From: Candidatus Eiseniibacteriota bacterium
GTDB taxonomy: Bacteria > Eisenbacteria > RBG-16-71-46
Direction of reading: 5' to 3'
DNA: 50,185 nt
Assembly: GCA_035275545.1 (NCBI GenBank)
Contig: DATEMP010000086.1
Location: 1-50,185, forward strand
Below the pieces are notes generated by a model. The model was not told the origin of the DNA and did not search any database. It worked only from the letters and a program-made list of their open reading frames with translations. This document shows positions 4,234 to 41,407 of the stretch, in pieces. A program made the position numbers and the translations under genes. The stretch's first letter is position 1. Every line of letters begins with the position of its first letter.

Positions 4234-5958
4234 CTAGCGCAGCAGCAGCACCCGCTCGCTCTTGGTGGGAGCCCGCCCCACCACCGCCATCCGGTAGAAG
4301 TAGGTCCCGGTCGCGAGCGTGCGGCCTGCGTCGTCGAGGCCGTCCCAGAGCACCTGGTGCTCTCCGGCCGGCGAGAAGCCGTCCACCAGCGTGCGCACCT
4401 GCCGCCCGGTGACGTCCCAGACGTCGATCCGCACCTGGGCCGCCTCGTCGAGCCGGAAATCGATGCGGGTCGCGAGCCCGGGATGGAACGGGTTGGGAGC
4501 CGCCCGTCCCAGGACGCCGGTGCGCGTCTTCCAGGGCATGGGCGGCACGCTCACGGTGGGATCGAGCCCGTCCAGGAACAGCACGTACACCGCGCCCCGG
4601 TCCGTGCCGCCGTCGTCGTCGCCGGTCATCCCCACCACCACCCCGGCAACGCTCGGACCGCCCGCACCCTGGGGAGGGCCGGGGGCTCCGTCGTAGTCGC
4701 CCAACCACGCGAGCGAGGTGCCGAACGCGTCCAGGTTGTGCATGACCGCGGTGAAGTTGCCAAAGAAGTCGCTGATCTTCGACGAGCTCGTGCACACGCC
4801 GTTTGGACCGAGGTAGACGATGTAGACCGCGCCGCGGTCCTCGCCGCCGTCGTCGTCGCCGGCCACGCCGATCGCGAGGCTCGCGGCCGAGCCGCCGGTG
4901 CCGTCGAGGTCGCCGATCCATTGCACCGCGCCCCCGAACTCGTCGCTGTCGGCGAGGATGGCCTGAAAGTTGCCCGCCAGATCGCTGATCTTCTGCTCGC
5001 CGATCACGGTGCCGGCGGCGTTCAGGAACAGGATGTAGACCGCGCCCCGGTCGATGCCCCCGTCATCGTCGAAGGTGGCGCCCACCGCGATCGCGCTCTC
5101 GCCGGGGCCCGCCGGGCCGTCGAGGTCCCCCAGGGCGGTCACCGAGCTGCCGAAGTCGTCCGCGTTGTCGAGCACCGCCTGGAAGTTGCCCTGGGTGTCG
5201 CTGATCTTCCTCTCGGAGAGCACCGTTCCCGTGCTCGAGAGGAACAGGATGTAGACCGCGCCGCGGTCACCGCCGCCGTCGTCGTCACCCACCGCGCCCA
5301 CGGCCAGCGCCGTGACGCTCGGCCCGGTGCCGTCCAGGTCCCCCAGGTTGGCCACCGCCCCGCCGAACTCGTCGAGGTTGTCGAGCGGCGACACGAGGTT
5401 ACCGACCGTGTCGCTGATCTTCGTGTACGAAAGCACGTTGCCCGTCGTCGACAGGAACAGGATGTAGACGCACCCGCGGTCCGTGCCGCCGTCGTCCTCG
5501 CCGACCGCGCCCACCGCGATCGCTCCGGCGCTCGGCCCGGCGCCGTCGAGGTCCCCGAGGGACGCCACCGAGCTGCCGAACTGGTCGACGTTGATGATCA
5601 GCTCGGGAAAGTTTCCCTGGGTGTCGCTGATCTTCTGGTAGGAGAGCACCCCGCCCGTGGCATTGAGGAACATGATGAAGACCGCGCCGCGATCGCCGCC
5701 GCCGTCGTCGTCGAGGGCGGCCCCGACGGCGATCGCGCCCACGCTCGGGCCCCCGCCGTCGAGGTCGCCGAGGTAGGTCGCCGAGCCACCCAGCTCGCAG
5801 AGGTTGGTGAGGGGGGCCGTGAAGTTGCCCGCCAGATCGCTGATCTTCTGGTAGGACAGCACGTTTCCCGTGACCGCCCGGGCCGGATCGGCCCCGAAAA
5901 GGCCGGGAACGACCAGGACTCCGAACATGATGAAGCAAGGCAGAATTCGGCGGCGCAT
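4234..5958 (-). CDS. Secreted FG-GAP/integrin-alpha-like repeat protein with a FlgD-Ig/T9SS-like C-terminal domain
   Basis: ORF 4234..5991. ATG 5958 is preceded by GAGGAG. Signal peptide MRRRILPCFIMFGVLVVPGLFG. Six ~70-aa repeats carry the motifs KISDxxGNF, FGxSVxxLGDLDG and DDDGGxDRGAVYILFL. The C-terminus (PNPFHPG...IDVWDVTGRQVRTLV...GTYFYRM) is FlgD-Ig-like. Confidence 0.85.
   Translation of the reverse strand: MRRRILPCFIMFGVLVVPGLFGADPARAVTGNVLSYQKISDLAGNFTAPLTNLCELGGSATYLGDLDGGGPSVGAIAVGAALDDDGGGDRGAVFIMFLNATGGVLSYQKISDTQGNFPELIINVDQFGSSVASLGDLDGAGPSAGAIAVGAVGEDDGGTDRGCVYILFLSTTGNVLSYTKISDTVGNLVSPLDNLDEFGGAVANLGDLDGTGPSVTALAVGAVGDDDGGGDRGAVYILFLSSTGTVLSERKISDTQGNFQAVLDNADDFGSSVTALGDLDGPAGPGESAIAVGATFDDDGGIDRGAVYILFLNAAGTVIGEQKISDLAGNFQAILADSDEFGGAVQWIGDLDGTGGSAASLAIGVAGDDDGGEDRGAVYIVYLGPNGVCTSSSKISDFFGNFTAVMHNLDAFGTSLAWLGDYDGAPGPPQGAGGPSVAGVVVGMTGDDDGGTDRGAVYVLFLDGLDPTVSVPPMPWKTRTGVLGRAAPNPFHPGLATRIDFRLDEAAQVRIDVWDVTGRQVRTLVDGFSPAGEHQVLWDGLDDAGRTLATGTYFYRMAVVGRAPTKSERVLLLR
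4576..5871 (-). repeat. Six tandem ~210-bp coding repeats (FG-GAP-like blades)
   Basis: Protein-level periodicity of 69-79 residues (aa 41-109, 110-180, 181-251, 252-323, 324-393, 394-472 of the 585-aa ORF) with conserved DxDxDGG calcium-loop-like motifs. Confidence 0.85.
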
Positions 5959-6267
5959 CGGGCGACTCCTCACGATCGAAGCATGACGCACGTTGGATGC
6001 CGTTCAACGGTTTCGGGGGACATGGACACCCACACGAAGTCGTTTAGCAGCACGCGAATTCTAATGCAGTGTGAATTGCGGTTTCCATAGAGGACGGTGG
6101 GAATCGCGCTGTTTTCATCACGCCTTGGGCGAATTGACCCCGCGGTGCCGTCGCGGTGACGTTCGCGAGACATGGCGCAAAGCGAGAACCCCCCGGACCC
6201 GGATGCGTGAAGACATCCGTTTCCGAGGGGCTTCGTCAGGCCGCCGCTCCCCACGTCGGCCCGTGAA

Positions 6268-7398
6268 TCAGAAGTCCATCTGCGCCTGGAGCCGCGCGCC
6301 GTCCACCGATTCGCTGGTGTTCGCCTGCAGCCGCACGTCCCCCTGAAGCTTGAGGCTGTGGCCCTTGAGGTAGTAGTTCATCCCGACGTAGGTGACGTCG
6401 CGCTTCCCGCCGCCCACCGCCGTGTCGAACCGCGTCTCGTCGAACCGGGCGAACGGCTGGAGCCTTTCCTGAAGCACCAGGAAGCCGGCGCCCACCATCC
6501 ACACTTTGGTCTCGATCGAGGGTCCGGCGCCCGAGGGGTCCACCTTGACCACGTTCGCCTCTCCCTTCACGAACAGCCGGCCGGCGCCGACCGGGACGTC
6601 CAGCATGCCGTCCCCACCCACCGCCGAGTACGCCGCGCTGTCGGTGTTCGCCACGTTCTCGATCTGCTGGAAGCTGCCGTTGACGCCCAGCGAGTACCAC
6701 CGGTCGGTGCCGAAGTGCGCGTCCTGGAACACGTCCTTCGTCGAGCCGAAGTTCACGTCCAGACGTCCGACCACCATGGGGCGGTCCTGGTAGCGGCCCG
6801 CGATCCGCCGGTTGTCGAACAGACCCACCGCCCAGGGGGTGCGTCCCTGGTACCCCTTGCCCATGAGTTGGAAGCCGGTCGCGTTGTCGGCGAGGCCGAG
6901 ACCGTCGGGCACGCCCGACACGTCGCCGCGGTCCACCGCCAGCTGCTTGGAATCCGAGGTGAGACGGTCACGGGAGAACGGCTGGTCGTACAGGCCCGCC
7001 CGCATCTCCACGCCGCCGCCCAGCACAAACTGGATCCACGCGTTCTCGACCGCCGCGGACGGGGTGATTCCGTTCTGGTCGGTCTGGTCGATCTTCCACT
7101 CGAAACCGTAGCTCGCGGTCTTCATCTTGCCGTTCGCCTTGAAGCGGGCGCGGCGGATCATGAAGTCCCGCTGGCCGTCGGTGATGCCTCCGACCAGCAC
7201 GTGGTCCAGCTCCATGCGGGGCTGGAGCCGGAACCCGAGCTCGAGGGTGTGGCCCTCGGTCTCGAACACCTTCACTCCGCACCGCGCCACATTCGGTGCC
7301 GCCATCAGCACCGCCAGCACCAGGCCCGCTCCCACCACGGAGCGTGCACGCGCATCACTGCGTCGGCCTTTCAAGGGATGGATCTCCTTTTCTTTCAT
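6268..7398 (-). CDS. Outer-membrane porin, phosphate-selective porin O/P (OprO/OprP-like) family
   Basis: Full ORF. Has a signal-like N-terminus and a Porin_O_P-like pattern (LELGFRLQPRMELD, FMIRRARFKANGKM, WKIDQ). The sequence shows alternating beta-strand character and a terminal F (LQAQMDF). It starts 15 nt after the stop of RND pump 2. Confidence 0.8.
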   Translation of the reverse strand: MKEKEIHPLKGRRSDARARSVVGAGLVLAVLMAAPNVARCGVKVFETEGHTLELGFRLQPRMELDHVLVGGITDGQRDFMIRRARFKANGKMKTASYGFEWKIDQTDQNGITPSAAVENAWIQFVLGGGVEMRAGLYDQPFSRDRLTSDSKQLAVDRGDVSGVPDGLGLADNATGFQLMGKGYQGRTPWAVGLFDNRRIAGRYQDRPMVVGRLDVNFGSTKDVFQDAHFGTDRWYSLGVNGSFQQIENVANTDSAAYSAVGGDGMLDVPVGAGRLFVKGEANVVKVDPSGAGPSIETKVWMVGAGFLVLQERLQPFARFDETRFDTAVGGGKRDVTYVGMNYYLKGHSLKLQGDVRLQANTSESVDGARLQAQMDF

Positions 7399-7413
7399 GA
7401 CGGTACGCTTCGA

Positions 7414-10400
7414 TCAGGCCGTCGCCATCGGCGTCGTCGCGGGCTTCATCGGGCGCGCGAAGCGCAGGTAGAGGGTCGGCAGGATGAACAGGTTGAGCAG
7501 GGTCGAGGTGACGAGTCCGCCCATGATGACGACCGCCATGGGATGCTCGATCTCGTGCCCCGGGATGGTGCCCGCGACCAGCAGCGGCACCAGGGCCAGG
7601 CCCGTGCACAGCACGGTCATCATGATCGGCGAGATGCGCTCGCGCGCCCCGCGGATGACCAGGTTGAGCCCGAACGGCTCGCCTTCATGCCGCTCGAGAT
7701 GCTGATAGTGGTTGATGAGCATGATGCCGTTCCGCGCCGCGATGCCGAGCACGGTCAGGAAGCCGACGGTGGTTCCGAGCGAGATGACGCCGTCGCCGAG
7801 GAACGCCGCGAGCACACCGCCCACCAGTGCGGCCGGCAGGGCCAGGAAGCCCACCAGCGCGAGCCGCCAGTCCATGAACGACGCCTGCAGCAGCAGCAGC
7901 ACGCCGAGCACGGCGACCACGGTGAGAGTGCGCATCCGCTTCTGCGCCGCCTGCCGCTCCGCGTACTCGCCCAGCATCTCGGGGTGATAGCCCTTGGGGA
8001 ACTCGATGGCAGCGACCTTCTTCTCGACGTCACGCACCACCGAGCCGAGATCCCGCCCGCGCACGTTGGCCCGCACGTCGATCTTGCGCTTCATCTGCCA
8101 GCGCTCGACCGCGTTGGGCGTCGCCACGAGCTTCACGTCGGCCAGCTCCGAGAGGCGCATCTGGCCCCCCTCCGGCGTGTCGACCAGCATGTTCTGGATG
8201 TCCGAGACGCTGTTGCGGCACTCGGGGATGCTCCAGACGTTGACGTCGTAGGCCTTGCCGTCGCGGAAGATGTCGCCGACTTCCGTGCCGGTCACCATCG
8301 CCGCCGCGGTGCGCCGCACGTCGCCGGGCTTGATGCCGTACTTGTACGCCCGCTCGAGGTCGACCTTGACGTCGATCTGGGCGATCTCCTTGAGCGACTC
8401 GACCTTGAGATCGACCACCCCCGGCACGTCCTCCATCGCGTGCTTGAGGGAGTCCGCCTTGGCGCGGAGGACCTTCAAGTCGTCACCGAAGATGCGGATG
8501 GTGATCGCGGTGGGCGAGCCGGTGAGCACCTCGCGGATGCGCTCCTTGAGGTAGGTCTGCACGTCACGCACAAGGCCCGGATATCCGTCCACCGCCGACT
8601 GCACCGCCTTGAGCGTCTTGTCGTAGTCCACGCTCGGATCGATGCTGATCCAGTTCTCGCCGAAGTAGACGCCGTACACCTCGTCCATGATGAGCGCCTG
8701 GCCGATGTGGGAACCGGAGTTGCGGACGCCCGGGATCTTCATGATCTCGTCGCAGGCCGCGGCGGAGATGCGGAACTCCTCGGTGACCGACGTACCGGGC
8801 TCGGTCAGCCAGTGCATCAGGAAGTCGCGCTCCTTGAAATCCGGGAGCAGGGACTGTCCGAGACGGGGGAACACGATGGCACCGGCGAGCACGACCACCG
8901 CGACGGTGGCGTAGATCGCCTTGGGCCGCGGCACGATCGTGGAGAGCGCGCGGCTGTAGTGGTGCTGCAGCCACCGGACCACCGGGGAATCGTGCTCGCG
9001 CAGCGGCGCCTTGGACAGCAGGATGAGCGCCATGGCGGGCGTCACCGTGAGGGCCACGAACATCGACGCCAGGAGCGAGAGCGAATAGGAGACCGCCAGC
9101 GGCTGGAAGAAGGCGCCGGACAGGCCGCCGAGGAAGAACACCGGCAGCAGTGCCACGACGTCGATCAGGGTCGCGTAGACGATCGCCTGGCGGACCTCGA
9201 GCGACGAATCGAGGATCACCCGCGCGATCGACTTGGTGCCGCCCGTGCGCCGGTGCTCGCGCAACCGTCGCATGACGTTTTCGATGTCGATGATCGCGTC
9301 ATCGACCAGCGCCCCGAGCGCGATGACGAACCCCGCCAGGATCATGGTGTTGATGGTCGTGCCGGTCAGGTACAGCACCAGCATGGCCGCCATCAGCGAG
9401 AGCGGGATCGCGACGCAGGTGATGAGGGCGACCCGCCATTCCAGCAGGAACAGGGCGAGCACCATCACGACCAGCAGACACCCGAGCAGCAGCGACTTGC
9501 TCAGGTTGTGGATCGAGATCTCCACGAAGCTCGCCGGCCGGAAAATGGTCGGATCGATCGTGAGATTCGGAAGCCCGGGCTTGAGCGATGCCAGCGCATC
9601 GTCGACGCCCTTGGTCACCTGGAGCGTGTTCGCCCAGGGGAACTTCTCGACGATCAGCAGCAGCCCTTCTCCGCCGTTGATGACCCCGTCGCCGACCAGC
9701 GGCTGGTGGCCGGTGGTGAGGACCGCCACGTCCTTGAGCTGGAGCCTCTCCCCGCCGCGGCCGGTGATCGAAACCTCACCGAGTCCGTCCGGATCCACGA
9801 TCGACAGCTTGTTGCGGATGCCGATCTGCTGGTTGGGTGTGGCGATGAAGCCGCCGGTGCCGATCATGGCGCCGTCGGAGTGGGTCATGAGGCCCGCTTC
9901 CAGCGCGTCGGAGGTCGCGTCCATGACCTGCTCGACCGTCACGCCGTGCTGGCGCAACCGGGCAGGATCCACCTGCACCTGGGGCATCTTGATGCGCTCG
10001 CCCCAGATCGCGACGTTGGCGACCCCCTTCACCGCGAGCAGCCGGGGCCGGATGGTCCAGTAGGCGATCATCGACTGATCGACCATGGACACCGTCTTGG
10101 ACGACACGCCGATCTTCATGAAGCGGGCGGTCGCCGAGAGCGGCTGCAGCATGACCGGCGGGCCCACGTCCTTGGGGATCACGCCGATGACCAGCGCGAG
10201 ACCCTCCTGGACGTGCTGCCGCACCGCCATCGGGTCGGAGCCGCGCTTGAAGATCATCTTCACCGACGACAGGTCGGTGACCGACTTCGAGCGCAGGATG
10301 TCCAGGTCGGGCAGGCCGGCCAGCGCCTGTTCGAGCGGGATGGTGACCAGCGCTTCGACCTCGGTCGGGGAGAGACCCAGACACGGGGTCTGGATCTCCA

Positions 10401-10539
10401 CGATCGGCGGGGCGAATTCGGGGAACACATCCACCGGCATGTCCCGCATCTGGTCGGCGCCGACCAACATGAGCGCCCCCGCGATGGCGAGTACGATGAA
10501 CCGGTACTTGAGACTCGATCCTACGATCCAGCGAAACAT
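7414..10539 (-). CDS. RND efflux transporter permease (paralog 2, AcrB/CzcA superfamily)
   Basis: 1041-aa ORF with the N-terminus MFRWIVGSSLKYRFIVLAIAG..MPVDVFPEFAPPIVEIQT. The TM4 relay motif is LGALVDDAIIDIENV. It has a 12-TM-like layout with two large periplasmic loops. Confidence 0.95.
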   Translation of the reverse strand: MFRWIVGSSLKYRFIVLAIAGALMLVGADQMRDMPVDVFPEFAPPIVEIQTPCLGLSPTEVEALVTIPLEQALAGLPDLDILRSKSVTDLSSVKMIFKRGSDPMAVRQHVQEGLALVIGVIPKDVGPPVMLQPLSATARFMKIGVSSKTVSMVDQSMIAYWTIRPRLLAVKGVANVAIWGERIKMPQVQVDPARLRQHGVTVEQVMDATSDALEAGLMTHSDGAMIGTGGFIATPNQQIGIRNKLSIVDPDGLGEVSITGRGGERLQLKDVAVLTTGHQPLVGDGVINGGEGLLLIVEKFPWANTLQVTKGVDDALASLKPGLPNLTIDPTIFRPASFVEISIHNLSKSLLLGCLLVVMVLALFLLEWRVALITCVAIPLSLMAAMLVLYLTGTTINTMILAGFVIALGALVDDAIIDIENVMRRLREHRRTGGTKSIARVILDSSLEVRQAIVYATLIDVVALLPVFFLGGLSGAFFQPLAVSYSLSLLASMFVALTVTPAMALILLSKAPLREHDSPVVRWLQHHYSRALSTIVPRPKAIYATVAVVVLAGAIVFPRLGQSLLPDFKERDFLMHWLTEPGTSVTEEFRISAAACDEIMKIPGVRNSGSHIGQALIMDEVYGVYFGENWISIDPSVDYDKTLKAVQSAVDGYPGLVRDVQTYLKERIREVLTGSPTAITIRIFGDDLKVLRAKADSLKHAMEDVPGVVDLKVESLKEIAQIDVKVDLERAYKYGIKPGDVRRTAAAMVTGTEVGDIFRDGKAYDVNVWSIPECRNSVSDIQNMLVDTPEGGQMRLSELADVKLVATPNAVERWQMKRKIDVRANVRGRDLGSVVRDVEKKVAAIEFPKGYHPEMLGEYAERQAAQKRMRTLTVVAVLGVLLLLQASFMDWRLALVGFLALPAALVGGVLAAFLGDGVISLGTTVGFLTVLGIAARNGIMLINHYQHLERHEGEPFGLNLVIRGARERISPIMMTVLCTGLALVPLLVAGTIPGHEIEHPMAVVIMGGLVTSTLLNLFILPTLYLRFARPMKPATTPMATA

Positions 10540-10564
10540 GGAAAGTGACCTCCCGGGACGGCTG

Positions 10565-11011
10565 TTAGTGGCCGTACTTGTGTTCGGCGCCCATCAGCTC
10601 GGCGGCCCCGACGGTCACGACGGCGGTTCCCGCAGCAGGACCCTCCGCCAGGATCACCTGATCTCCCTGCACGTCCTCGACCACGATGCGATGACGCACG
10701 AACGTCAGCGGCGAGGGGTTCGTGAATGTCCAGGTCTCGCCCTTCGTGTCGTACATGATGGCGCCGTAAGGCACCACCTTGCGGGTCACGAGGTCCCCGC
10801 CCACGCGCACCTGCTCCTCGCGCACCTGGGCGGTGCGCAGGCCGATCCGCTCGGCGGCGCGGGCTTCCAGGATCACCCGGCTGATGCCCTTCTCCGCGGT
10901 GTCCTCGAGCTTGGCCGGGTGGTACTTCTCGGCCACCTTGTCTTCCTTGCAGCCGGTGAGGAGCGCGAGGCTCCCCACCAGGGCGATGACTGCGATGTGC
11001 GTGATCTTCAT
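10565..11011 (-). CDS. Small lipoprotein resembling only the N- and C-terminal segments of an RND membrane-fusion (adaptor) protein
   Basis: ORF 10565..11059. ATG 11011 is preceded by AGGAGGAG. Lipobox LALLTGC. An N-terminal segment ISRVILEARAAERIGLRTAQV is followed by VVPYGAIMYDTKGETWTFT..FVRHRIVVEDVQGDQVILAEGPAAGTAVVTVGAAEL. Both match the first and last conserved segments of HlyD/CusB-type adaptors. There is no room for lipoyl or alpha-hairpin domains (148 aa in total). Confidence 0.7.
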   Translation of the reverse strand: MKITHIAVIALVGSLALLTGCKEDKVAEKYHPAKLEDTAEKGISRVILEARAAERIGLRTAQVREEQVRVGGDLVTRKVVPYGAIMYDTKGETWTFTNPSPLTFVRHRIVVEDVQGDQVILAEGPAAGTAVVTVGAAELMGAEHKYGH

Positions 11012-11045
11012 GACGACTTCTCCTCCTAGGCGAATGTGAGTTCGG

Positions 11046-14000
11046 TCAGACGGCGACACCGAGGTCCTCGGTCTCTACCGCATCGGGCATGGCGCCGGCC
11101 CCGAATCGGGCGTAGAGCGCGGGAACGACGGACAGGGTGTAGAGCGTGGTGGTGACGAGACCGCCCATGATCACGATCGCCAGGGGACCCAGCACCTCGT
11201 GTCCGGCCCGCGATCCGAAGATCGCGAGGGGCAGCACAACAGCCGCGGTCACGGCGGCCGAGGCGATCGTGGTGGCCGCATGCTCGCGGGTGCCGCGGTG
11301 GATCATTTCAGAGCCGAACTCCAGCCCTTCCTGACGGCGCAGCTCGCGATAGCGATGGACCAGGAGCACCGCCTGGCGCACCGCCAGGCCGAGCACGGTC
11401 ATGAAGCCCGCCGTCGCCCCCAGGGACATGGGGACGCCGCTGGCCACCGCGGCCAGCACGCCGCCGGCCATCGCGATCGGAAGCGTGAGCAGCGTGGTGA
11501 AGGCGAGGCCCCAACTGCCGAACGCCGCCTGGAGGACGAACAGAATGCCGATTGCGACGAAGAACGCGGCGATCAGGACACGCATCCGGGTCGCTTCCTG
11601 CTTCGCGAAGTCGCCGAGCAGCTCCGCCCGGTACTCGAGCGGGAACGCGGCGCCCTTCAGACGGGCCTGCACGTCGGCAGCGATCGCGTCGACGCTCCGA
11701 CCGTTCACGTTCGCCACCACGTCCACGCTGCGGGCAACGTTTTCGCGACGGATGACGTTGGGGGCGGGGGTCATGGTGACCTTCGCCACGTCACCCAGCC
11801 GCACGTGGGCGCCGTTGGGCGTATCGACGAGCAGGTTCTGAATGGAGGAGATACTGTGGCGGATCTCCGGCTTGCCCCACACCACCACCTCGAAGATCTT
11901 CTGCTCCTCGAAGAGGTTGCCGACCTCGATGCCCGCGAGCAGCGTCGCCGCCGCACGCCGGACGTCGCCGGGCTTGAGGCCGGCCTTGGCGGCCTCGTCG
12001 AGCTTGACCTCGATCTCGACCACCGGCTCCTGCGCCTCGGCGTCGACCCGCGCGTCGGTGACTCCCGCGACCGCCTTCAGGAGGTCGCGAACCTTGTCGG
12101 CCTGCTGCGCGAGGACGCTCGCTTCCTGGCCGTAAAGCCGGACGACGATCGGCTCGTCGACGCGCGACAGCCGCTCGCCGAAGCGCGAGCTGAGGAAGGT
12201 CATGACGTCGGCGTCGACACCCGGGTAGCCGGAGACGATTTCCTCGACCGCCGAGACGGTGGCGTCGTAGCGGGCGTTCGGCTCGAGATTCACCCACATC
12301 TCGCTCGAGGCCATGCCGACGACCTGATCGGAGAGGATGGCGCGGCCCACGTGACTGCCCACGCTGCGCACACCGGGAACGGAACGGATCTCGCGGCCGA
12401 CCCGCTCGAGCATCCGGTTCATCTCGCCCCGCGACGTGCCGGGCACGGCGTCCCAGTGCACGAGGAGATCGGGCTCCTTGAACCGCGGCGCAGGGGAGAC
12501 TTGCATGCGGGGCGCCAGAACGATGCCGGCGACCGCGGCGATCACCGTGAACGCGAGCGCCGCCTTGCCGAAGCCGGGCGACGCGGAGTCGAACATGCGC
12601 TTGATCCACGCGGAGAGCGCGGAGTCGTGACGCACCAGCTCGGCCTTGCCGAAGAACATGATGCACAGGGCGGGCGTGAGGGTGCAGGCCGCCAGGAACG
12701 AGCTGAGGACCGCGGCGACGTACGCCATGGCCATCGGCCGCACGAACGCGCCCGGGATCCCGGCCATGAACAGGACCGGCACCGCGGCGAGCAGCGCGAC
12801 CGCGGTGGCGAACAGCAGGGGCCGCCGGACCTCGGCGAGCCCTTCGAGGAAGGTGCGGACCACGTTGGTGCCGGGGCCCTTGCGCAGGCGCCTCAGCACG
12901 CTGTCCGCGTAGACGATCGCGTCGTCGACCACGATCGCCAGGGCTGCCGCGAGGCCGGCGAGCACCATGACGTTCATGGAAACGCCGGACTTGTACATCA
13001 CCAGCACGGCGGTCATCAGCGCCACCGGGATCGTGATCAGGCCGACCAGCGCGGCGCGCCAGTCGTAGGTGAGGGCGAGCAGCATCACGACCAGAAGGAT
13101 GAGCCCGATGAGCAGCGCACCCTGCAGATTGCGGATCGAGGCGCGGATGTAGTTCGCGGGATGGTAGACGCTGGTGTCGAACTCGACCCCGCCGAGGCCG
13201 GGCTTGAGCGCCGTGAGCGCCTCGACGATGTGATCCGTGACCTCGAGCGTGTTGACGCCGGGAAGCTTCTCGACCACCAGCAGCAGGCCGGGGCCACCGC
13301 TGTTCATCGCGTCACCGATCAGCGGCTGGTGATCCTCGACCACGCTGGCCACCTCGCCGAGCGGAATCGAGGTGTCCTCGACCGGGACCTTGGCGAGATC
13401 CACGGCGGTGTTGATCGGCAGCACGTGGCGCACGCCGATCCGCTGGTTGGGGGTCTCGATGAACCCGCCGGTGCCGGCGACCGAAGCCTCGAGGAAGCTC
13501 AAGGGCGAGTACCAGAGCGCGTTGCCCGCGGTCCTCACCACCTGGACCAGCGAGATGTTCCGCGCCGCGATCTTCTGCGGATCCACCTGCACCTGGAGCT
13601 GCCGCTCGCGCTGGCCCCAGATCGCGACGTTGGCGACGCCCGGCACGCCCATGAGGCGCGGCCGGATCGTCCAGCGCGCGAGCACCGACATCTCGATCAG
13701 GGACTGGTTCTTCGACGACAGCCCGATGAGCATGATGCGGTTGGTTGCGGACAGCGGCTGCAGCATCTGCGGGGGCCGCGACACGTTGGGCAGCGCGTGC
13801 GCCTGCGTGAGGCGCTCCTGCACCACCTGGCGCGCGTTCATCGGGTCGGTGCCCGGCTCGAACACCAGCTCGATCGAGGACAGCCCGGGGACCGATTCCG
13901 AGCGCATGGTCTCGACCCAGGGCGTGCCGGTGAGGAGGTCGGCTTCGATCGGCACCGTGATGAGCTGCTCGACCTCGGCGGCGGAGAGACCCAGCGCCTC

Positions 14001-14153
14001 GGTCTGGACGTTGACGGTGACCGGCATGATCTCGGGGAACACGTCCACCGGCATGTCATCGAGCGAGTTGATGCCGATGGCCATGACGATGACCGCTGCC
14101 GCGATCACCAGCGGGCGGAAGCGGAGACTCCCCCGGACGATTGAGTTGATCAT
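11046..14153 (-). CDS. RND efflux transporter permease (paralog 1, AcrB/CzcA superfamily)
   Basis: ORF 11046..14363. The internal ATG at 14153 (MINSIVRGSLRFRPLVIAAAVIV..MPVDVFPEIMPVTVNVQT) is preceded by GGGAGGG and aligns with the N-terminus of paralog 2. The TM4 motif is LAIVVDDAIVYADSV. Confidence 0.95.
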   Translation of the reverse strand: MINSIVRGSLRFRPLVIAAAVIVMAIGINSLDDMPVDVFPEIMPVTVNVQTEALGLSAAEVEQLITVPIEADLLTGTPWVETMRSESVPGLSSIELVFEPGTDPMNARQVVQERLTQAHALPNVSRPPQMLQPLSATNRIMLIGLSSKNQSLIEMSVLARWTIRPRLMGVPGVANVAIWGQRERQLQVQVDPQKIAARNISLVQVVRTAGNALWYSPLSFLEASVAGTGGFIETPNQRIGVRHVLPINTAVDLAKVPVEDTSIPLGEVASVVEDHQPLIGDAMNSGGPGLLLVVEKLPGVNTLEVTDHIVEALTALKPGLGGVEFDTSVYHPANYIRASIRNLQGALLIGLILLVVMLLALTYDWRAALVGLITIPVALMTAVLVMYKSGVSMNVMVLAGLAAALAIVVDDAIVYADSVLRRLRKGPGTNVVRTFLEGLAEVRRPLLFATAVALLAAVPVLFMAGIPGAFVRPMAMAYVAAVLSSFLAACTLTPALCIMFFGKAELVRHDSALSAWIKRMFDSASPGFGKAALAFTVIAAVAGIVLAPRMQVSPAPRFKEPDLLVHWDAVPGTSRGEMNRMLERVGREIRSVPGVRSVGSHVGRAILSDQVVGMASSEMWVNLEPNARYDATVSAVEEIVSGYPGVDADVMTFLSSRFGERLSRVDEPIVVRLYGQEASVLAQQADKVRDLLKAVAGVTDARVDAEAQEPVVEIEVKLDEAAKAGLKPGDVRRAAATLLAGIEVGNLFEEQKIFEVVVWGKPEIRHSISSIQNLLVDTPNGAHVRLGDVAKVTMTPAPNVIRRENVARSVDVVANVNGRSVDAIAADVQARLKGAAFPLEYRAELLGDFAKQEATRMRVLIAAFFVAIGILFVLQAAFGSWGLAFTTLLTLPIAMAGGVLAAVASGVPMSLGATAGFMTVLGLAVRQAVLLVHRYRELRRQEGLEFGSEMIHRGTREHAATTIASAAVTAAVVLPLAIFGSRAGHEVLGPLAIVIMGGLVTTTLYTLSVVPALYARFGAGAMPDAVETEDLGVAV

Positions 14154-14212
14154 GTGTGAAGCCCTCCCGAAAAGCGCATGAAACGACTCCCTGATGTGGA
14201 AACGGACGCAGC

Positions 14213-14238
14213 GGAAAACGCCAGGCAGGCGCCTGGCG
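14213..14238 (-). terminator. Intrinsic-terminator-like hairpin inside the leader upstream of RND pump 1 (possible attenuator)
   Basis: The minus strand reads cgccaggc-gcct-gcctggcg followed by ttttcc. This is an 8-bp GC-rich stem with a 4-nt loop and a U-tract, about 60 nt upstream of the RND1 start codon. Confidence 0.5.
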
Positions 14239-14488
14239 CCGGGCACCACACGGACGGGAGGAATGCTCCGGCCCCGGTGGCGATGGGTGGGGTGTGCACG
14301 CCGAACACCCGGGCACCCGATGACAACACGAACTACCCCCAGCACGATCACGCGTCGATGCACGTGACCTTCGAAGGCCGGCCTTGGCGGTAGTCCCTCA
14401 GGCCGGGAGGCCTTCGGGGTTCCGGCGGCGATGAAAACGGGGTTGCGGCCCCGCCGCCGGTTGAAAAATGCAATGTGAACCGGGAAGA

Positions 14489-14543
14489 ATCGTACGGACT
14501 ACATCAGGATAGCGTCAAGAGAAAGTATCAAGATTGTCTCAAG
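14489..14543 (-). promoter_or_regulatory. Candidate sigma70-type promoter with three direct CTTGA repeats (possible OmpR-family regulator boxes) for the RND operon
   Basis: Locally AT-rich. The minus strand reads CTTGAgacaatCTTGAtactttctCTTGACG, then an 18-nt spacer, then TACGAT. TTGACG is the reverse complement of 14513-14518 and TACGAT of 14489-14494. The repeats are spaced 11 and 13 bp apart. Confidence 0.4.
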
Positions 14544-14680
14544 CAACCCGGCCGGAGTGTCGTGCGGTATGAAGGATGCGCGTGAATCGGCTGTGGAATG
14601 GTGGCTTGAGCGCGTGCGCATGTCTCGGGAGCCGAGACCCGTCGAACACATGCCCACCGGCGGGCGCCGGCGGGGTTCTG

Positions 14681-15304
14681 CTAGTGGAGGACCGACCGGA
14701 CCTGGGTCTTGGGGGTGACCTGGAATTCCATCCCCATGACCGAGACTACCCGCCGGCGCGTGTCCACGCGCTCGACCTTGCCCACCATCTCGACCCGGGT
14801 GCGCAGCTTGGGCTGCCGGGCGGCCTCGTCGCTTTCGTCGTCCACCTCGGCGGCCATGAGCGTGTGGCTGCTGAGGAAGGTGCCTTCCACGTCGACGTAG
14901 GATCCCGCCCGGAGGGACGTGAAGCCCTTGATGCTCTCCTCGGGGCTCTCGTAGATGGTCTTGTCCGAGACGGTGATGCGGCAATCCCCGATCGTGAACT
15001 CGCGGCGATCGGCGTGGACCGCGTTCACCGTGCCCTGGATCGACCAGTCGTCGTCCAGGAAATCGCCGGTGAGCAGCTTGAGCTCGCTGCAGGGCGTGGG
15101 GGAGGCGCCCTGCGGCGTGCCCACCACCTTGACCCACTGGCCCGCCTTGAAGGTGGCGAGTGGGTCGGGTGCGGCCGCCCGGGTCGACTGGGTGCGGCCG
15201 GCGGAGGGCACGGCCAGCGCCAGGATGGTGGCGAGACCCAGGATGATGCGTGCGCGACGATCGTTCACGGCCTCACCGTCATTTCGTCTCCCATGGAGAT
15301 GCAT
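14681..15304 (-). CDS. Secreted DUF5666-like protein
   Basis: This is the 3' part of ORF 14681..15475. ATG 15304 lies 5 nt after the regulator's stop. An alternative GTG at 15268 gives the cleaner signal peptide NDRRARIILGLATILALAVPSAG. The protein has repeated small beta-domain segments (VKVVG..., VDVEGTF..., VEMVGKVERVD...). Confidence 0.7.
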   Translation of the reverse strand: MHLHGRRNDGEAVNDRRARIILGLATILALAVPSAGRTQSTRAAAPDPLATFKAGQWVKVVGTPQGASPTPCSELKLLTGDFLDDDWSIQGTVNAVHADRREFTIGDCRITVSDKTIYESPEESIKGFTSLRAGSYVDVEGTFLSSHTLMAAEVDDESDEAARQPKLRTRVEMVGKVERVDTRRRVVSVMGMEFQVTPKTQVRSVLH

Positions 15305-15309
15305 GCGCT

Positions 15310-16029
15310 TCACGTGCCGTCCCCGCTGGTCTGGGGCTGCGGGTCGAACAGGTAGCCCGCGCCGCGCGCGGTGCGGATGTAGCGCGGCCGGTCGGGATCG
15401 GGCTCGATGTGCTTGCGGAGCCTCAGCACGTGATTGTCGACCGTGCGGGTGGTCAGGTTGTCGGCGTAGCCCCACGCCTCCTTCAGGAGACGCTCGCGCG
15501 TCAGCACCTCGCCGGGATGCTGGATCAGGTACTCGAGCAGCCGGAACTCGCGCCGGGTGAGGGAGTGGGCCTCGCGGCCCCGACGGACCTCGTGGCGGTC
15601 CAGGTCGACCAGAACGTCGCCGAGCCTGACCCGGCCCGGCAGCTCGGCGTCGGTGGGTGGAGCGGTCTCCGTGCGGCGCAGCTGGGCGCGGACGCGCGCC
15701 AGCAGCTCCCGGAGGCTGAACGGCTTGGTAACGTAGTCGTCGGCCCCCAGCTCGAGACCGAACACCCGGTCGTTCTCCTCCGCCCGCGACGTGAGCATGA
15801 TGACCGCGGTGCGCAGGTGCTGGTCACGGATGCGCTTGCAGATCTCGAACCCGCTCATTCCCGGCAGCATGAGGTCGAGCAGGATCAGGTCCGGGCGCCC
15901 CTCGAGCGCCAGGCGCAGGCCCTCCGGCCCGGACTGGGTGGAGCGGACCTCGTAGCCCTCGGACTCGAGCGCGGTGGTGAGCCCGGTGAGCATCGCCGCA
16001 TCGTCCTCGATGATGAGCACCTGTTTCAT
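15310..16029 (-). CDS. OmpR/PhoB-family response regulator
   Basis: Receiver domain (LIIEDD, DLILLDLMLPGMSG, ADDYVTKPF) plus a winged-helix output domain (LTRREFRLLEYL, TVDNHVLRLRKHI, IRTARGAGY). Its ATG overlaps the kinase stop as ATGA. Confidence 0.95.
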   Translation of the reverse strand: MKQVLIIEDDAAMLTGLTTALESEGYEVRSTQSGPEGLRLALEGRPDLILLDLMLPGMSGFEICKRIRDQHLRTAVIMLTSRAEENDRVFGLELGADDYVTKPFSLRELLARVRAQLRRTETAPPTDAELPGRVRLGDVLVDLDRHEVRRGREAHSLTRREFRLLEYLIQHPGEVLTRERLLKEAWGYADNLTTRTVDNHVLRLRKHIEPDPDRPRYIRTARGAGYLFDPQPQTSGDGT

Positions 16030-18308
16030 GCGTTGCGTCCTCCGATGCGTTCGACCGGCTGGAGATCCGTCACCGGCGCTACCGGTGCGGGGACCGGCCG
16101 TGCAGACGGCACGGGCAGGGTCACTGTGAACGTGGATCCGTGTCCCACCTGGCTGCGCACCGTGATCTCGCCGCCGTGCGAGCGGACGATCTCGCGGGAC
16201 AGCGCGAGTCCCAGGCCCAGCCCGCCCTGGGTGGGCGAGTCCATGCGCTGCCAGCTGGTATAGAACTTCTCGAACACCCGCCGCTGGTCGCGCGGGTCGA
16301 TCCCGACGCCCCGATCGGTGACCTCGATCAGGACCTCTTCCCGCCGGCGCGTGACGCTCACCCGGATGTCCTTCTCGTCCTTGCTGTACTGCGCCGCGTT
16401 GGTGAGCAGGTTCAGGAGCACCTGGGACACCGCGTCCGCATCCAGCAGCACCACCGGAAGATCGGAGTCGAGCGCGAGCTGCAGGCTGAATCCGCGGGCG
16501 TCGGCATGGGGACGGAACGACTCCACCGCCCGCTCCACCACCTCACCGACCGGGTGGGCCTCGAAGCGGTACTGCTTGACGTTGCGTTCCATGCGCGAGA
16601 AGTCGAGCACGCGGTCGACCAGCCGGTTCAGGCGGTCGCACTCCTCGCGGATGATCCTCAGGTGCTGCTCCGCGCTGGCGCGGAACCGCTGGGGGCCGTC
16701 CCCGCGGCCCATCTGGAGCTCGAGCAGCTCGGCGAACATCTTGATCGAGGCGAGCGGGGTGCGCAGCTCGTGGGTCACGTTCGAGACGAACGTGGTCTGC
16801 GCCCGCGACAGGTAGGACTGCCGCCGTGCCCGCTGGATGAACACGTAGCCGCCGAAGAGGATGCTGACCAGCATCAGGGAGATGAGCCACAGCCACGCGG
16901 TGCGCCGCAGGTCGAAGCGCTTCATGGCGCCCGGCACGTCGTGGAGGTACACGGCGACCTGCCAGAAGTCGAACGGGGGCGCGAGATCCTGGGTGGCCAT
17001 CAGGGTTCCGGTGGTCGCTTCCTGCCCGATCACCGCGCCACCGCCCGAACCGAGGATGGCAACGGCGCTCTGCGAATCGGTATGGAGCCCGCTCATGGCG
17101 CTCGAGAGCTGCTCCTGGAGTCGGGCCAGGTCGATCTGGGCGGCGATCACCCCGGTGACGTAGAGGCCGGTCTCGTCGGGCAGCGGCCGGTACGCGATCA
17201 GGAACGGCTCGCCCTCGGCGCGCGCGGACAGGTAGCGGATGGTGGGGATGTAGCGCTTCTGTCGGAACGACATGTCGCCCAGCTCCGCCTCGAGCAGGTG
17301 GAGGAAGTATCGGTCGCTGATGTGCTTCTTGCTCCGGTCCCCCAGGGCGCGGAACGCCTGGACGTAGCGGGCCGGGTCGGCGAGACCAGGCTGGCTCAGC
17401 AGGCGCGGCGCCAGCGCCTGGATGAGCTCCGAGTAGTAGGAGTACTGGGTGGTGGTGATCGCGTCGCTGCGCGCCTGGAGGTCGCGGTGGAGCTCGAGCA
17501 GCACGTCGAGGGCTTCCGCGGGCCGGCCCAGCCCGTCCAGGGCCGATGCGATCTGGTACTGGGCCAGGAACCGCAGATACATCCGGTTGAGGTCGCGGAC
17601 GTTCGGATACGTCTCGAGCAGGGCCCGGTAGGTGTCGATGGCCGCCTGGCGGTCGCCCGCTTTGAGCTGGGCGCGGCCGATGTAGCTCTCCGCCATCGCC
17701 AGCAGGCGGGGGTTCCGGACGCTGTTCAGGATCTCGCGGTAGGCGTCGATGGCCGCCCGCGGATTGCCGGCCTCGTACTCGATCATTTCACCCCGCGCCA
17801 CGAGGCGCGTGAACACGTCGTGCTCGCGGACATCGGTGCCGGGCACCCACATGGCGGCCGGCGCGATCTCCTCGCTGGGGGGCAGGGGCGGGTAGACGAT
17901 CCGGCCCGGGGCGCTCAGGATGAAATAGCGCGAGACCAGCGGCTCCTTGCCGGTGAACGCGGTGACCCGCTCCGGGGTGGGCACGCCGGGTGCGGCGCTC
18001 AACAGATCGTCGAAGGCGGTGATCCATCGGGACTCGGCGTTCTGCAGCTGGTATTCGAGCTGGCGGCTGGAGAGCAGCGCGAGCTGCCCGTAGCTCCCGC
18101 GCAGGCGTTCGAGCGAGTAGGAGCGCTCGTTCTCGATCGCGCGCCAGCTGAGATACCCGAGCACGACGCTCGGCCCGATCACGAACGCGAGCAGGATGAG
18201 CGCGGTCCCCGCTCCGGACCCCATCACGCGACTCCATGCGCTGCGCTCGCCCGAGCGACGGCGGGGGCCGCGCCCGGGGCTCACCACCTGAAGCGCCGGA
18301 TCGTTCAT
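16026..18308 (-). CDS. Sensor histidine kinase with a large extracytoplasmic sensor region
   Basis: ORF 16026..18434. HisKA motif FVSNVTHELRTPL. HATPase motifs NLLTNAAQYS, DRGVGI and GGLGLGLALSREIV. Two TM segments bracket roughly 450 aa containing TPR-like helices. The start is uncertain (18308, 18224 or 18434). Confidence 0.9.
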   Translation of the reverse strand: MNDPALQVVSPGRGPRRRSGERSAWSRVMGSGAGTALILLAFVIGPSVVLGYLSWRAIENERSYSLERLRGSYGQLALLSSRQLEYQLQNAESRWITAFDDLLSAAPGVPTPERVTAFTGKEPLVSRYFILSAPGRIVYPPLPPSEEIAPAAMWVPGTDVREHDVFTRLVARGEMIEYEAGNPRAAIDAYREILNSVRNPRLLAMAESYIGRAQLKAGDRQAAIDTYRALLETYPNVRDLNRMYLRFLAQYQIASALDGLGRPAEALDVLLELHRDLQARSDAITTTQYSYYSELIQALAPRLLSQPGLADPARYVQAFRALGDRSKKHISDRYFLHLLEAELGDMSFRQKRYIPTIRYLSARAEGEPFLIAYRPLPDETGLYVTGVIAAQIDLARLQEQLSSAMSGLHTDSQSAVAILGSGGGAVIGQEATTGTLMATQDLAPPFDFWQVAVYLHDVPGAMKRFDLRRTAWLWLISLMLVSILFGGYVFIQRARRQSYLSRAQTTFVSNVTHELRTPLASIKMFAELLELQMGRGDGPQRFRASAEQHLRIIREECDRLNRLVDRVLDFSRMERNVKQYRFEAHPVGEVVERAVESFRPHADARGFSLQLALDSDLPVVLLDADAVSQVLLNLLTNAAQYSKDEKDIRVSVTRRREEVLIEVTDRGVGIDPRDQRRVFEKFYTSWQRMDSPTQGGLGLGLALSREIVRSHGGEITVRSQVGHGSTFTVTLPVPSARPVPAPVAPVTDLQPVERIGGRNA

Positions 18309-18678
18309 GCGATGGGGATCACCTGGGACCATCGTCGTATATGGAGACGGATCGCATAATCCTACCGGGCGGCGGCGTCCATGAACAGTGCGGGAATGAT
18401 CGGGAGCGTTTTCGCCGCGTGATGTGCCGGGCATTTCGCCGAGCGCCGATCGCGCGCGGGGAATCCACCTCAGCCGCGCTCGTCAAATCACTCAGGGCCG
18501 GGGCTCCGCGACGGGACGCGGCGGAGTCGGCGCGGGGCCGCGCGCACGGATGACGAGGACGAACCGGTGACAGGCCAACGTCCTAGCTCGCGAACCGCGC
18601 AGGGTCTCTTCTGCGGCACGGAACTCGCGATGCCGTCGGCTGTCGCCGAATCCCTGCGCGGGCCGGAGGCTCCGGCCT

Positions 18679-20655: not shown

Positions 20656-20769
20656 CAGCAGGATTCACCCGGGGTCGCATGCGACCGGGGCCGTCAGCCC
20701 CGGCCGCCGTGCCGCCCCGGTCATCGACGGCATGAACGCAGCTTGCTCAACACATCCCAGGAGGATGCC

Positions 20770-31583: not shown

Positions 31584-31834
31584 GACGTCCTCCGTCGTGA
31601 CCGGCCGCGACCGCGACGACGTGCAGCAGGCGCGTGATCCGGTCATGGGGTTATCGGCCACGGGCACCGTTTGGCACAGCGAAACTCGATTCGCGACGTG
31701 TTCGCTGTGGCCGCAGGCACCTGCGGTTTGTTAGCTTATCGTCACGCGGGCCGCGTCCCGTCCGCCATCATTCGAAGCAAGCGATGTTTCTCGCGACGGC
31801 GTCCCTGGCTTCGGGGCCGCCTAGGGGGGTCACG

Positions 31835-39267: not shown

Positions 39268-40102
39268 CGGAACGCACCCCCATCCATCCCGGGGGCGCCG
39301 AGCCCAGCCCCAGCAGGAGACCGAACGACATGACCAGCAGCAGCACCGAGAGCACCACCGCGGCGTCCAGATCGGACTGGAGCGCCACGTAGACCGCGAG
39401 CGGCATGGTCTGCGTGACCCCGGGCAGGTTGCCGGCGAAGGTGATGGTTGCACCGAACTCGCCCAGTGCGCGCGCCCCGCTCAACGACACGCCCGCCACC
39501 AGGGATGGCAAGGCGAGCGGCAGCATGACGCGGAGGAAGCGCTGGGTCTCGGAGGCGCGCAGCGTCGCCGCGGCGTCGAGGAGGCGCGGGTCGACGCCCG
39601 CGAACCCGGCGCGTGCGGGAGCGATGAAGAACGGCGCCGCCATGAACACCTGGGCGAGGATCACCCCCACGGTGGTGAACGGCAGACTCACGCCGAACGC
39701 GCTCAGCCAGTGCCCCGCGAAGCCCATCCTCCCGAACGCCATCAGCAGCGCGAAGCCGGCCACCGTAGGAGGGAGCACCATCGGCAGCTGGATGAGCACC
39801 TCGAGCAGGCGCTTGCCCCGGAACTCGCGGGTGGCGAGCAGGTACGCGGCCGGAGTGCCGAGGATCACGACCAGCGCCGTCGCGGAGATGCTGGTGAGGA
39901 GGCTGAGCCGCAGCGCCTCCAGCACCGCCGGCTCACCGAGGCGCACCAGCAGCGTCCGTGGGGATACGCGCGCGATCAGGCCGACGAACGGCAGCGCGAG
40001 CAGCAGGACCAGGACGCCGATCGCGGCGATCGCCAACCCTGGGATCAGCGGAGGCGACGGACGCCCGGCAGCCGCGAAGCGGGCATCGGGCGCGTGGCTC
40101 AC
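39233..40102 (-). CDS. modB: Molybdate ABC transporter permease
   Basis: 3' part of ORF 39233..40891. GTG 40102 overlaps the modA stop as GTGA. Has a BPD-transporter EAA-like loop (AAATLRASETQRFLRVMLPLALP) and FGATITFAGN. Confidence 0.9.
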   Translation of the reverse strand: MSHAPDARFAAAGRPSPPLIPGLAIAAIGVLVLLLALPFVGLIARVSPRTLLVRLGEPAVLEALRLSLLTSISATALVVILGTPAAYLLATREFRGKRLLEVLIQLPMVLPPTVAGFALLMAFGRMGFAGHWLSAFGVSLPFTTVGVILAQVFMAAPFFIAPARAGFAGVDPRLLDAAATLRASETQRFLRVMLPLALPSLVAGVSLSGARALGEFGATITFAGNLPGVTQTMPLAVYVALQSDLDAAVVLSVLLLVMSFGLLLGLGSAPPGWMGVRSGAGHPGSPPHR

Positions 40103-41300: not shown

Positions 41301-41407
41301 CGAAACTCCTGCTTGCCTCGGCCTCAAAGGATGCTAATGTGCCGTCGCTGTCGAATGGAAGCCACATTGCACCACATGAAGGACGACATCAAGGAGTTCC
41401 AGCACCC

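Follow-up and report, generated by a model that had tools for sequence, protein, structure and literature searches.

A cassette of two paralogous RND pumps and a membrane-proximal-domain adaptor lipoprotein in Candidatus Eiseniibacteriota

The system in this report is a cassette of two paralogous transporter genes of the RND (resistance-nodulation-division) superfamily, RND1 and RND2, with a gene for a small lipoprotein between them. It was found in a 50,185-nt stretch of DNA from a Candidatus Eiseniibacteriota bacterium (assembly GCA_035275545.1, contig DATEMP010000086.1, positions 1 to 50,185), called the window here. The lipoprotein, of 148 amino acids (aa), is a real remnant of a membrane-fusion protein (MFP), the adaptor of RND pumps, and it has kept the N-terminal strand and the C-terminal membrane-proximal (MP) domain. 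As far as can be judged from sequence, the cassette appears to be widespread, unannotated and of an undescribed architecture, and it fails defining features of MdtABC/MuxABC, of BesA and of CusCBA/ZneCAB. We propose, with a probability of roughly 0.45, that it encodes an inducible inner-membrane pump with two kinds of RND subunit and an activating, non-bridging adaptor, which would release its substrate to the periplasm for passive exit across the outer membrane.

The minimal adaptor and its gene cassette

The 148-aa protein has an N-terminal signal peptide with a lipobox (LLTG-C21), and at least 90% of family members have the lipobox cysteine. It has zero Pfam or NCBIfam matches, and thus none to the barrel and lipoyl models HlyD_D23, HlyD_3 and Biotin_lipoyl_2. 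Its AlphaFold2 (AF2) model, with a predicted local distance difference test score (pLDDT) of 83.6, has only three helices, namely that of the signal peptide, one of 7 residues and a C-terminal one of 12 residues; there is no coiled coil and no alpha-hairpin. The structures matched by this model in Foldseek are almost exclusively periplasmic adaptors: CusB (5.7e-4), the N-terminus and MP domain of SilB (9e-4), ZneB (root mean square deviation 1.2 A over 61 residues), AcrA, MexA, BesA and TriAB. The family profile likewise matches the C-terminus of TriAB in the PDB. A hidden Markov model (HMM) built from three annotated MFPs matches the 148-aa open reading frame (ORF) at E=2.7e-22, and the last 69 residues are 45% identical to the C-termini of annotated adaptors. 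Compared part by part with an MFP, the protein has the membrane-proximal domain, formed by the N-terminal strand and the C-terminal beta-roll; it has neither the beta-barrel and lipoyl domains nor the hairpin that contacts the outer-membrane factor (OMF). A 12-residue loop (residues 67-78) occupies the place of the barrel, lipoyl and hairpin domains. An earlier examination of this DNA from the letters alone (the sequence-only reading) had called the protein a mini-adaptor, and its fold, the profile matches and its longer homologues bear that name out. As modelled, the mini-adaptor is too short to reach the outer membrane or to open a duct.

The family to which it belongs is large: clustering at 90% identity gives at least 500 clusters, and clustering at 50% gives 2084 representatives. 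It has no Pfam or NCBIfam model; every named member is labelled "hypothetical protein." Members fall into two length classes, ~145-160 aa and 240-343 aa, and the 100-190 extra residues of the long class all come after query position 66 and before position 67. Some of these inserts have matches to HlyD_3, HlyD_D23, Biotin_lipoyl_2 or TIGR01730. Because the long members carry a lipoyl/barrel insert at the very point where the window's protein has its 12-residue loop, the latter can be seen as the end of a reduction series. Read by eye, several long members show barrel strands and an acidic low-complexity stretch, and in one of them, P0151, the two lipoyl halves are joined by ~15 residues, so that no hairpin is present. 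The hairpin-less members P0125, P0143, P0151, P0207 and P0245 (280-343 aa) have runs of Asp and Glu of up to ~30 residues inside the region that is missing from the mini form. Conserved positions of the mini-adaptor include the charged residues E36, R45, R55, D88, R106, E138 and E143 and a C-terminal ELxGxE..G motif. We also considered a role as a metal chaperone in the manner of CusB or CusF. The candidate residues His31, His144, His148, Met86 and Met140 are conserved in the close clade only and none of them across 150 family representatives. As the family has no conserved His, Met or Cys, this role is unsupported and was rejected.

The gene arrangement is conserved together with the protein. 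Close orthologues of the mini-adaptor (55-82% identity) are encoded in metagenome-assembled genomes (MAGs) that bear the label Candidatus Eisenbacteria, Candidatus Krumholzibacteriia or "uncultured bacterium," and the order RND1-mini-RND2 is present in all of their loci. Mini-type relatives with the same core occur in 80 further metagenome loci; they are 46-62% identical to P0140, the first sequence of the query alignment in the metagenome scan, and ~38-55% identical to the mini-adaptor of the window. When all loci with enough flanking sequence are counted, the small gene has an RND gene upstream of it in 76 of 82 cases and one downstream of it in 80 of 83, with a median gap between the mini gene and RND2 of 28 nt. 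The cassette is common in soil bacteria, and the recurrence of RND-small gene-RND in ~80 independent loci means that it is not a chance feature. The sequence-only reading had suggested a survey of the neighbourhoods of mini-protein orthologues as a check on the gene order, and these counts answer it in favor of conservation as far as RND2.

There are variations on this theme. Long-form family members are likewise found between two RND genes at loci L007, L008 and L021, one of them in an alphaproteobacterial MAG. In L007 (1882-12694), L052 (3599-19762) and L102 (7-14623), RND1 and the adaptor gene are separated by an inserted ABC-2 type exporter, which consists of an ATPase and a permease. A minority of loci (L027, L029, L034, and L066; L044, L046, L061, and L087) have the mini gene with a single RND gene downstream and none upstream, or with no adjacent RND gene. 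It looks as if the mini-RND2 pair is the ancestral unit and RND1 a later upstream addition. The commonest neighbours in distant loci are two-component systems.

Neither a full-length adaptor nor a TolC-type OMF was found beside the cassette. The search for such genes in the organism itself covered the window: a Pfam scan of every window ORF with high third-position GC content (GC3) gave no HlyD, lipoyl or OEP match, and a six-frame search with TolC and MFP HMMs, each built from three annotated proteins, returned only the 148-aa ORF and nothing TolC-like. These searches, of the kind that the sequence-only reading had recommended, agree with its statement that the window has no full-length MFP and no TolC-type OMF. 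In the relatives, OEP and HlyD are absent from the 25 commonest Pfam families, which are those reported, among 129 neighbour ORFs of 21 metagenome loci. A tblastn search with three TolC and three MFP queries (E<=1e-6) of ~45 loci with usable flank showed no TolC or full-length adaptor beside the cassette; the TolC queries were taken from the plasmid operons L022-L024, the sole fetched loci with TolC genes.

More remote relatives, ~40% identical over the MP domain only, are ordinary adaptors of 314-410 aa. They are encoded in TolC-MFP-RND operons accompanied by kinase and regulator genes, on plasmids of Sphingomonas, Methylomonas and Hymenobacter. These operons were found by a plasmid search with a long family member, from which only canonical TolC-MFP-RND operons came back, matching in the C-terminal domain. 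In this sample, the loss of the distal adaptor domains coincides with the loss of a linked OMF and the gain of a second RND gene.

The system might span the envelope after all, with the RND trimer docking tip-to-tip onto an unlinked TolC-type OMF, the mini-lipoprotein only stabilising or activating the pump, and the porin that follows RND2 playing no part in efflux. Operons without an OMF gene are common, and E. coli acrAB and mdtABC both use an unlinked tolC; moreover, the relatives of the mini-adaptor MP domain just described work in TolC-containing operons, and the pumps themselves align with ZneA and CusA through the region of the docking domain. The pump of BesA recruits its OMF without an adaptor hairpin (PMC3807786, PMC8277102), but BesA retains a lipoyl and a barrel domain, which form a ring around the pump, and the mini-protein has neither. 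A direct junction without a sealing ring of adaptors would leak to the periplasm. Furthermore, no OEP gene stands beside the cassette in the loci surveyed, in contrast to the adjacent OEP genes of the full-length relatives. We therefore regard docking onto an unlinked duct as unlikely.

The paired RND pumps

Both pumps match the ACR_tran model (PF00873) over positions ~5-1020 of 1021, with 599.9 bits for RND1 and 714.2 bits for RND2 (cutoff, 28), and they are 42% identical to each other. The closest solved structures are, for both, ZneA and then CusA, in alignments that run end to end. Nonetheless, they fall below the cutoffs of the established classes. For the heavy-metal efflux (HME) model TIGR00914 the scores are 455.7 (RND1) and 599.3 bits (RND2) against a cutoff of 701.45. 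For the hydrophobe/amphiphile efflux 1 (HAE-1) models they are 247.9 and 372.8 against 940 (TIGR00915) and 388 and 481 against 1250 (NF033617), and the HAE3 model is matched only marginally by both pumps.

Transmembrane helix 4 (TM4) reads LAIVVDDAIVYADS in RND1 and LGALVDDAIIDIEN in RND2. The TM4 signature of HME pumps is DFG-x3-D-[GA]-x-x-x-x-x-EN, and a DD pair is found in HAE-1 pumps; neither RND1 nor RND2 has the Asp of DFG, and both have the DD pair. Membership in the heavy-metal exporter class was rejected on the scores and on the wrong TM4 signature. The substrate class is not readable from the pump sequences, since both lie below the HME and HAE-1 cutoffs and TM4 carries the HAE-like DD pair.

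The two pumps differ in their proton relay. That of RND2 is canonical, with the motifs VDDAIIDIEN, ARN and RERISPIMMT. In RND1 the TM4 motif ends in VDDAIVYADS, so that EN is lost and ADS stands in its place, and the equivalent of the TM11 Arg is a His. The same asymmetry runs through the 41 loci of a motif survey: the downstream copy is uniformly canonical (VDDAIIDIEN, ARN, RERxxPIxMT), and the upstream copy varies at EN and, in the clade of the window, at the TM11 Arg too. Among the orthologues of this clade, RND2 is 75-84% identical and RND1 is 59-69% identical, and in a tree the downstream copies form one clade and the upstream copies do not. On these motifs and identities, RND1 is to be read as the faster-evolving paralogue with degraded proton-relay motifs, and RND2 as the canonical copy.

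A comparable asymmetry is known from MdtB2C, in which the proton relay is fully canonical in one copy and relaxed in the other, and in which the roles are divided, one subunit supplying proton coupling and the other binding substrate (PMC4338810). By analogy, RND1 and RND2 would most likely assemble into a mixed trimer and divide the work, to which their adjacency in 76 of 82 loci and the uneven conservation of their motifs point indirectly. The operons of MdtABC and of MuxABC-OpmB also resemble the cassette in having two adjacent paralogous RND genes, ~42-50% identical. However, MdtA and MuxA are full-length adaptors, encoded before both pumps and working with TolC or OpmB, whereas the adaptor of the cassette is encoded between the pumps, consists of the MP domain only and has no linked OMF. 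The RNDs of the cassette are also closer relatives of ZneA and CusA than of MdtB and MdtC.

The operon, its porin and its surroundings

In the window, the cassette is followed by a porin gene, and the four ORFs lie in one row on the minus strand (Table 1). The window is ~69% GC, and GC3 was used to single out real genes; in all four ORFs it has coding-typical values of 0.86-0.93. The order RND1-lipoprotein-RND2-porin and the coordinates claimed for it by the sequence-only reading hold, as judged from the ORFs, GC3 and the Pfam matches. So do two of the three gaps that it gave, 34 nt between RND1 and the lipoprotein gene and 25 nt between the latter and RND2. Its third gap, of 15 nt before the porin, assumes a start at ATG 7398. 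A start at TTG 7374, which would make the gap 39 nt, seems more likely, because an AAGGAG Shine-Dalgarno sequence precedes it and the resulting 368-aa product matches a protein-database record. The start of RND1 at ATG 14153 and its GGAGG ribosome-binding site are kept in four relatives. The sequence-only reading was silent on the two-component system upstream, the DUF5666 gene, the common promoter, the recurrent DUF5916 gene and the asymmetry of the pumps.

Table 1. Features of the RND operon and its flanks in the window
Feature	Position	Strand	Evidence
Sensor histidine kinase, 802 aa (TPR, HisKA, HATPase_c); first gene of upstream two-component system	16026..18434	-	Pfam; syntenic in L001, L005, L108
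OmpR/PhoB-type response regulator, 239 aa; start overlaps kinase stop codon	15310..16029	-	NCBIfam; syntenic in L001, L005, L108
Secreted DUF5666 protein, ~187 aa	14681..15244	-	Pfam DUF5666 E=8e-15; synteny
Promoter-like element	14489..14540	-	Consensus scan; conservation in relatives
RND1, divergent upstream RND paralogue, 1035 aa	11046..14153	-	Pfam ACR_tran 1e-179
Minimal adaptor lipoprotein, 148 aa	10565..11011	-	AF2 fold, Foldseek, profile matches, longer homologues
RND2, canonical downstream RND paralogue, 1041 aa	7414..10539	-	Pfam ACR_tran 3e-214
16-strand Porin_O_P-family porin, 376 aa (368 aa from TTG 7374)	6268..7398	-	Pfam, AF2, Foldseek
DUF5916 protein, 805 aa	1812..4229	+	Pfam; recurrent neighbour of cassette

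A promoter-like element, found by a consensus scan, lies ~335 nt upstream of RND1. A direct repeat, GAGAC-N6-GATAC, overlaps the -35 sequence TTGACG, which is followed after 18 nt by TACGAT. The element is unique in the window, and 0 of 100 shuffles match it. Upstream of RND1 in L001, L005 and L019, as in the window, it is conserved in the form GnGAC-N6-GATAC over TTGACr, and in L108 the same element lies ~70 nt upstream of the porin start. Because it stands before RND1 here and before the porin in L108, pumps and porin seem to share one promoter in the window, probably a regulator-dependent one. Direct repeats of this kind are typical of the sites of OmpR-family regulators, and from its sequence the element may well be bound by the adjacent response regulator. 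The gap between the DUF5666 gene and RND1 is ~530 nt, and comparable gaps of 400-850 nt are found upstream of RND1 in the relatives inspected. The leader from the element to the RND1 start (14154-14488, minus strand, ~335 nt) is poorly conserved. A hidden gene or riboswitch in this gap was considered and dropped: there is no Rfam match, and conservation is limited to the promoter element and the ribosome-binding site. The DUF5666 protein is always encoded after the response regulator in this clade and persists in L108; it may be an accessory to the sensor or a periplasmic binding protein. We found nothing useful on DUF5666 in the literature.

The porin matches Porin_O_P (PF07396) with 54.6 bits (cutoff, 20.9), in a match that spans only 88 N-terminal residues. 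AF2 (pLDDT 79.5) models it as a barrel of 16 strands that has a constriction loop inside and no periplasmic tunnel. The Foldseek TM-scores are 0.70 for OprP (2o4v), 0.69 for OprO (4rjw) and ~0.62 for OmpF-type porins. The Pfam score and the modelled fold thus bear out the claim that the sole linked outer-membrane component is a Porin_O_P barrel; the label "anion-type" that came with it is a prediction from Pfam family membership only. OprP and OprO, the phosphate and pyrophosphate porins of Pseudomonas aeruginosa, share with the window porin the Porin_O_P family, the 16-strand barrel and the constriction loop. The anion (phosphate) selectivity of this porin type depends on an arginine ladder and a lysine cluster. 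They differ in context, the window porin standing in an RND operon and not in a phosphate regulon, and in sequence, since a search of PDB sequences with the window porin gave no direct match to OprP or OprO and nothing informative.

The window has a second Porin_O_P gene (41291-42370, plus strand), with only 28% identity over 68 residues to the pump-linked porin. Its neighbours are a ModE-like HTH+TOBE regulator (40905-41333, minus strand), a ModC-like ABC ATPase with TOBE (38176-39480, minus strand) and a TonB-dependent receptor (43127-45370, plus strand), and the whole region, 38176-45370, looks like a molybdate or oxyanion uptake cluster.

How closely the pump-linked porin belongs to the pumps can be examined in the relatives. 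The sequence-only reading had suggested a dedicated porin, and in this the comparison does not follow it: most cassette lineages have no adjacent porin, and the close relatives L015 and L016 have the cassette and no porin within 10 kb. L108 shows the converse. It shares with the window the synteny of EamA, proline dehydrogenase, DUF5916, FG-GAP protein, porin, DUF5666, regulator, kinase and beta-helix proteins, but its porin directly follows the DUF5666 gene and it has no RND genes within 21 kb. Its proteins are as close to those of the window (DUF5916, 67% identity; histidine kinase, 63%; porin, 57%) as are those of cassette-bearing relatives, which suggests a deletion of the cassette in L108. 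Set beside window positions 14153-14681, L108 positions 9845-10001 look like a clean three-gene deletion or an insertion polymorphism.

In other lineages the porin remains near the cassette through several rearrangements (L003, L019 and L105), and in two distant loci another porin takes its place. The operon of L102 and L052 consists of RND1, an ABC-2 transporter, the mini gene, RND2, a barrel of the Porin_5 family, two or three genes without a known domain and DUF5916. All of its gaps in L102 are short, and the Porin_5 gene there begins 12 nt after RND2. A distant homology between this Porin_5 and the window porin was sought and is undetectable (BLASTP E=2.6; hhalign probability, 0.2%). Porin_5 in L102 and L052 is thus a non-orthologous porin at the same operon position, which favours some coupling. 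Overall, the link between porin and pumps is clade-specific and partly supported.

These patterns could mean that the porin belongs to the kinase-regulator-DUF5666 module as a regulated channel for uptake or exchange and is co-transcribed with the pumps by position only, the three RND-cassette genes having come to stand between the porin promoter and the porin start codon, an arrangement that would be compatible with the pump part of our model. The L108 locus, with the promoter immediately before the porin, the same flanking synteny and no RND genes, fits this well, as do L015 and L016 and the association of the other Porin_O_P gene with a molybdate-type uptake cluster. It accounts less well for the unrelated Porin_5 after RND2, immediately so in L102 and also in L052, and for a porin that stays near the cassette when its surroundings are rearranged. 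We hold it to be a possible explanation, though a doubtful one.

The DUF5916 gene is a further recurrent neighbour, in most relatives no more than a few genes away. In L001, L003, L005, L006, L015, L016, L018 and L019 it is close to the cassette, with changing position and orientation. Downstream of RND2 it is on the same strand and separated by short gaps in L102, and it is on the same strand in L052. A link to the pump system is possible. For DUF5916 we found no mention in the literature, no NCBIfam model and no relative in the PDB.

This neighbour raises the question of a transporter that builds the envelope in the manner of HpnN or MmpL3, carrying a lipid, glycolipid or polymer to the outer membrane with porin-like barrels and DUF5916 as acceptors. 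RND proteins that work without an OMF duct, such as HpnN and MmpL3, carry envelope lipids. DUF5916 tracks the cassette through rearrangements and is on the same strand downstream of RND2 in distant lineages; ABC-2 exporters lie inside the cassette in L007, L052 and L102; and the porin of L105 is found within a polysaccharide-synthesis cluster a few kb from DUF5916 and RND genes. The nearest relatives of both pumps, however, are efflux pumps (ZneA, CusA and those of the AcrB type), and their match to HAE3 is marginal. Two-component control also fits a stress response better than a housekeeping task, and the cassette is dispensable, as its absence from L108 shows. An envelope-building role appears quite improbable to us on this balance.

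Elsewhere in the window, large secreted proteins encoded at 4234-5991, 18571-23214 and 31601-34645 end in a FlgD_ig or Por_Secre_tail-like domain. They include an FG-GAP protein, two proteins of the NosD/beta-helix kind and one that resembles a protease, with a proprotein convertase P-domain and the propeptide motif of fungalysin/thermolysin. The shared ends suggest a common sorting signal typical of bacteria of the FCB group, which fits an origin like that of Eisenbacteria or Krumholzibacteria.

A proposed mechanism and its relation to known systems

In the mechanism that we favour, the adjacent kinase and regulator would act on the conserved promoter, from which RND1, the mini-adaptor, RND2 and the porin would be expressed as one stress-inducible transcript. 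The lipoprotein, tethered by a linker of ~10 residues, would bind the periplasmic porter region of the pumps. There it would supply the pump-stimulating and assembly role of the C-terminal domains of an MFP, which are reported to stimulate their transporters (PMC4338810), and would form no bridge to the outer membrane. RND2 would be the proton-driven subunit of the mixed trimer, sharing the work with RND1. Substrate would be taken from the cytoplasm or the inner membrane, released into the periplasm, and then diffuse out through outer-membrane barrels, the co-transcribed 16-strand porin among them.

Several observations weigh against this proposal. Most characterised RND pumps capture their substrate from the periplasm, and for such pumps a release to the periplasm would be useless. 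Another part of the genome might encode a TolC-type OMF or a second, full-length adaptor, in the way that E. coli has its tolC apart from acrAB. In some lineages the identity between the two RND copies is 65-72%, and a few loci hold only mini-RND2, so a heteromer is not obligatory for the family. The exit through the porin is the weakest step, because most cassette-bearing lineages have no porin adjacent. L108 keeps the promoter and the porin without the RND cassette. Finally, all of the organisms involved are uncultured, and the system is known from genes alone.

A more far-reaching form of the proposal would see in the cassette a fourth RND architecture, in which a bipartite inner-membrane machine, a mixed RND trimer with an MP-domain adaptor, has abandoned the TolC duct and ordinary porins of two families, Porin_O_P and Porin_5, were recruited independently to the position after RND2, with DUF5916 perhaps as a further outer-membrane partner. 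We put this forward only tentatively and consider it rather unlikely in full.

Of the systems known from the literature, BesA of Borrelia burgdorferi (PDB 4KKS-4KKU) comes closest to the mini-adaptor family, as an adaptor without an alpha-hairpin that is also among the Foldseek matches. It is the only atypical reduced adaptor discussed in the reviews that we consulted (PMC8277102, PMC3807786). The family members of 240-343 aa look BesA-like, judged from P0151 with the short link between its lipoyl halves. BesA itself has retained a lipoyl and a barrel domain along with the MP domain, and its partner is the TolC-like BesC, whereas the 148-aa protein is without lipoyl and barrel domains and no OMF is linked to it.

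The metal efflux systems CusCFBA and ZneCAB are similar to the cassette in other ways. ZneA and CusA are nearest to its pumps, CusB, SilB and ZneB are nearest to the MP domain of its adaptor, and a two-component system adjoins it, as cusRS does in the Cus system. In contrast to these systems, the cassette scores below the TIGR00914 cutoff, has VDD in TM4 and has an adaptor without conserved His, Met or Cys, and neither a CusC-type OMF nor a CusF-like chaperone was identified at the cassette. In the reviews and the literature searched, we found no description of an adaptor reduced to its MP domain or of an RND-adaptor-RND cassette, and nothing on efflux in Eisenbacteria.

In current models, a TolC-type duct can be recruited and opened by RND pumps of diderm bacteria only with the help of a full adaptor, and the MP domain of the adaptor switches the pump on. 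The cassette amounts to a natural experiment that separates the duct-recruiting role from the pump-switching role, in that the family keeps only the switching domain. Such an architecture would surprise efflux specialists; the account given here of its substrate, stoichiometry and outer-membrane route is an inference. If the proposal is true, the mini-adaptor would define a minimal adaptor, and RND1 and RND2 would be the second case, and an independent one, in which paired RND subunits divide the labour. The cassette would also show how efflux, or other work done by RND proteins, proceeds without an outer-membrane duct, and small proteins that are now all labelled "hypothetical protein" could be given a better annotation.

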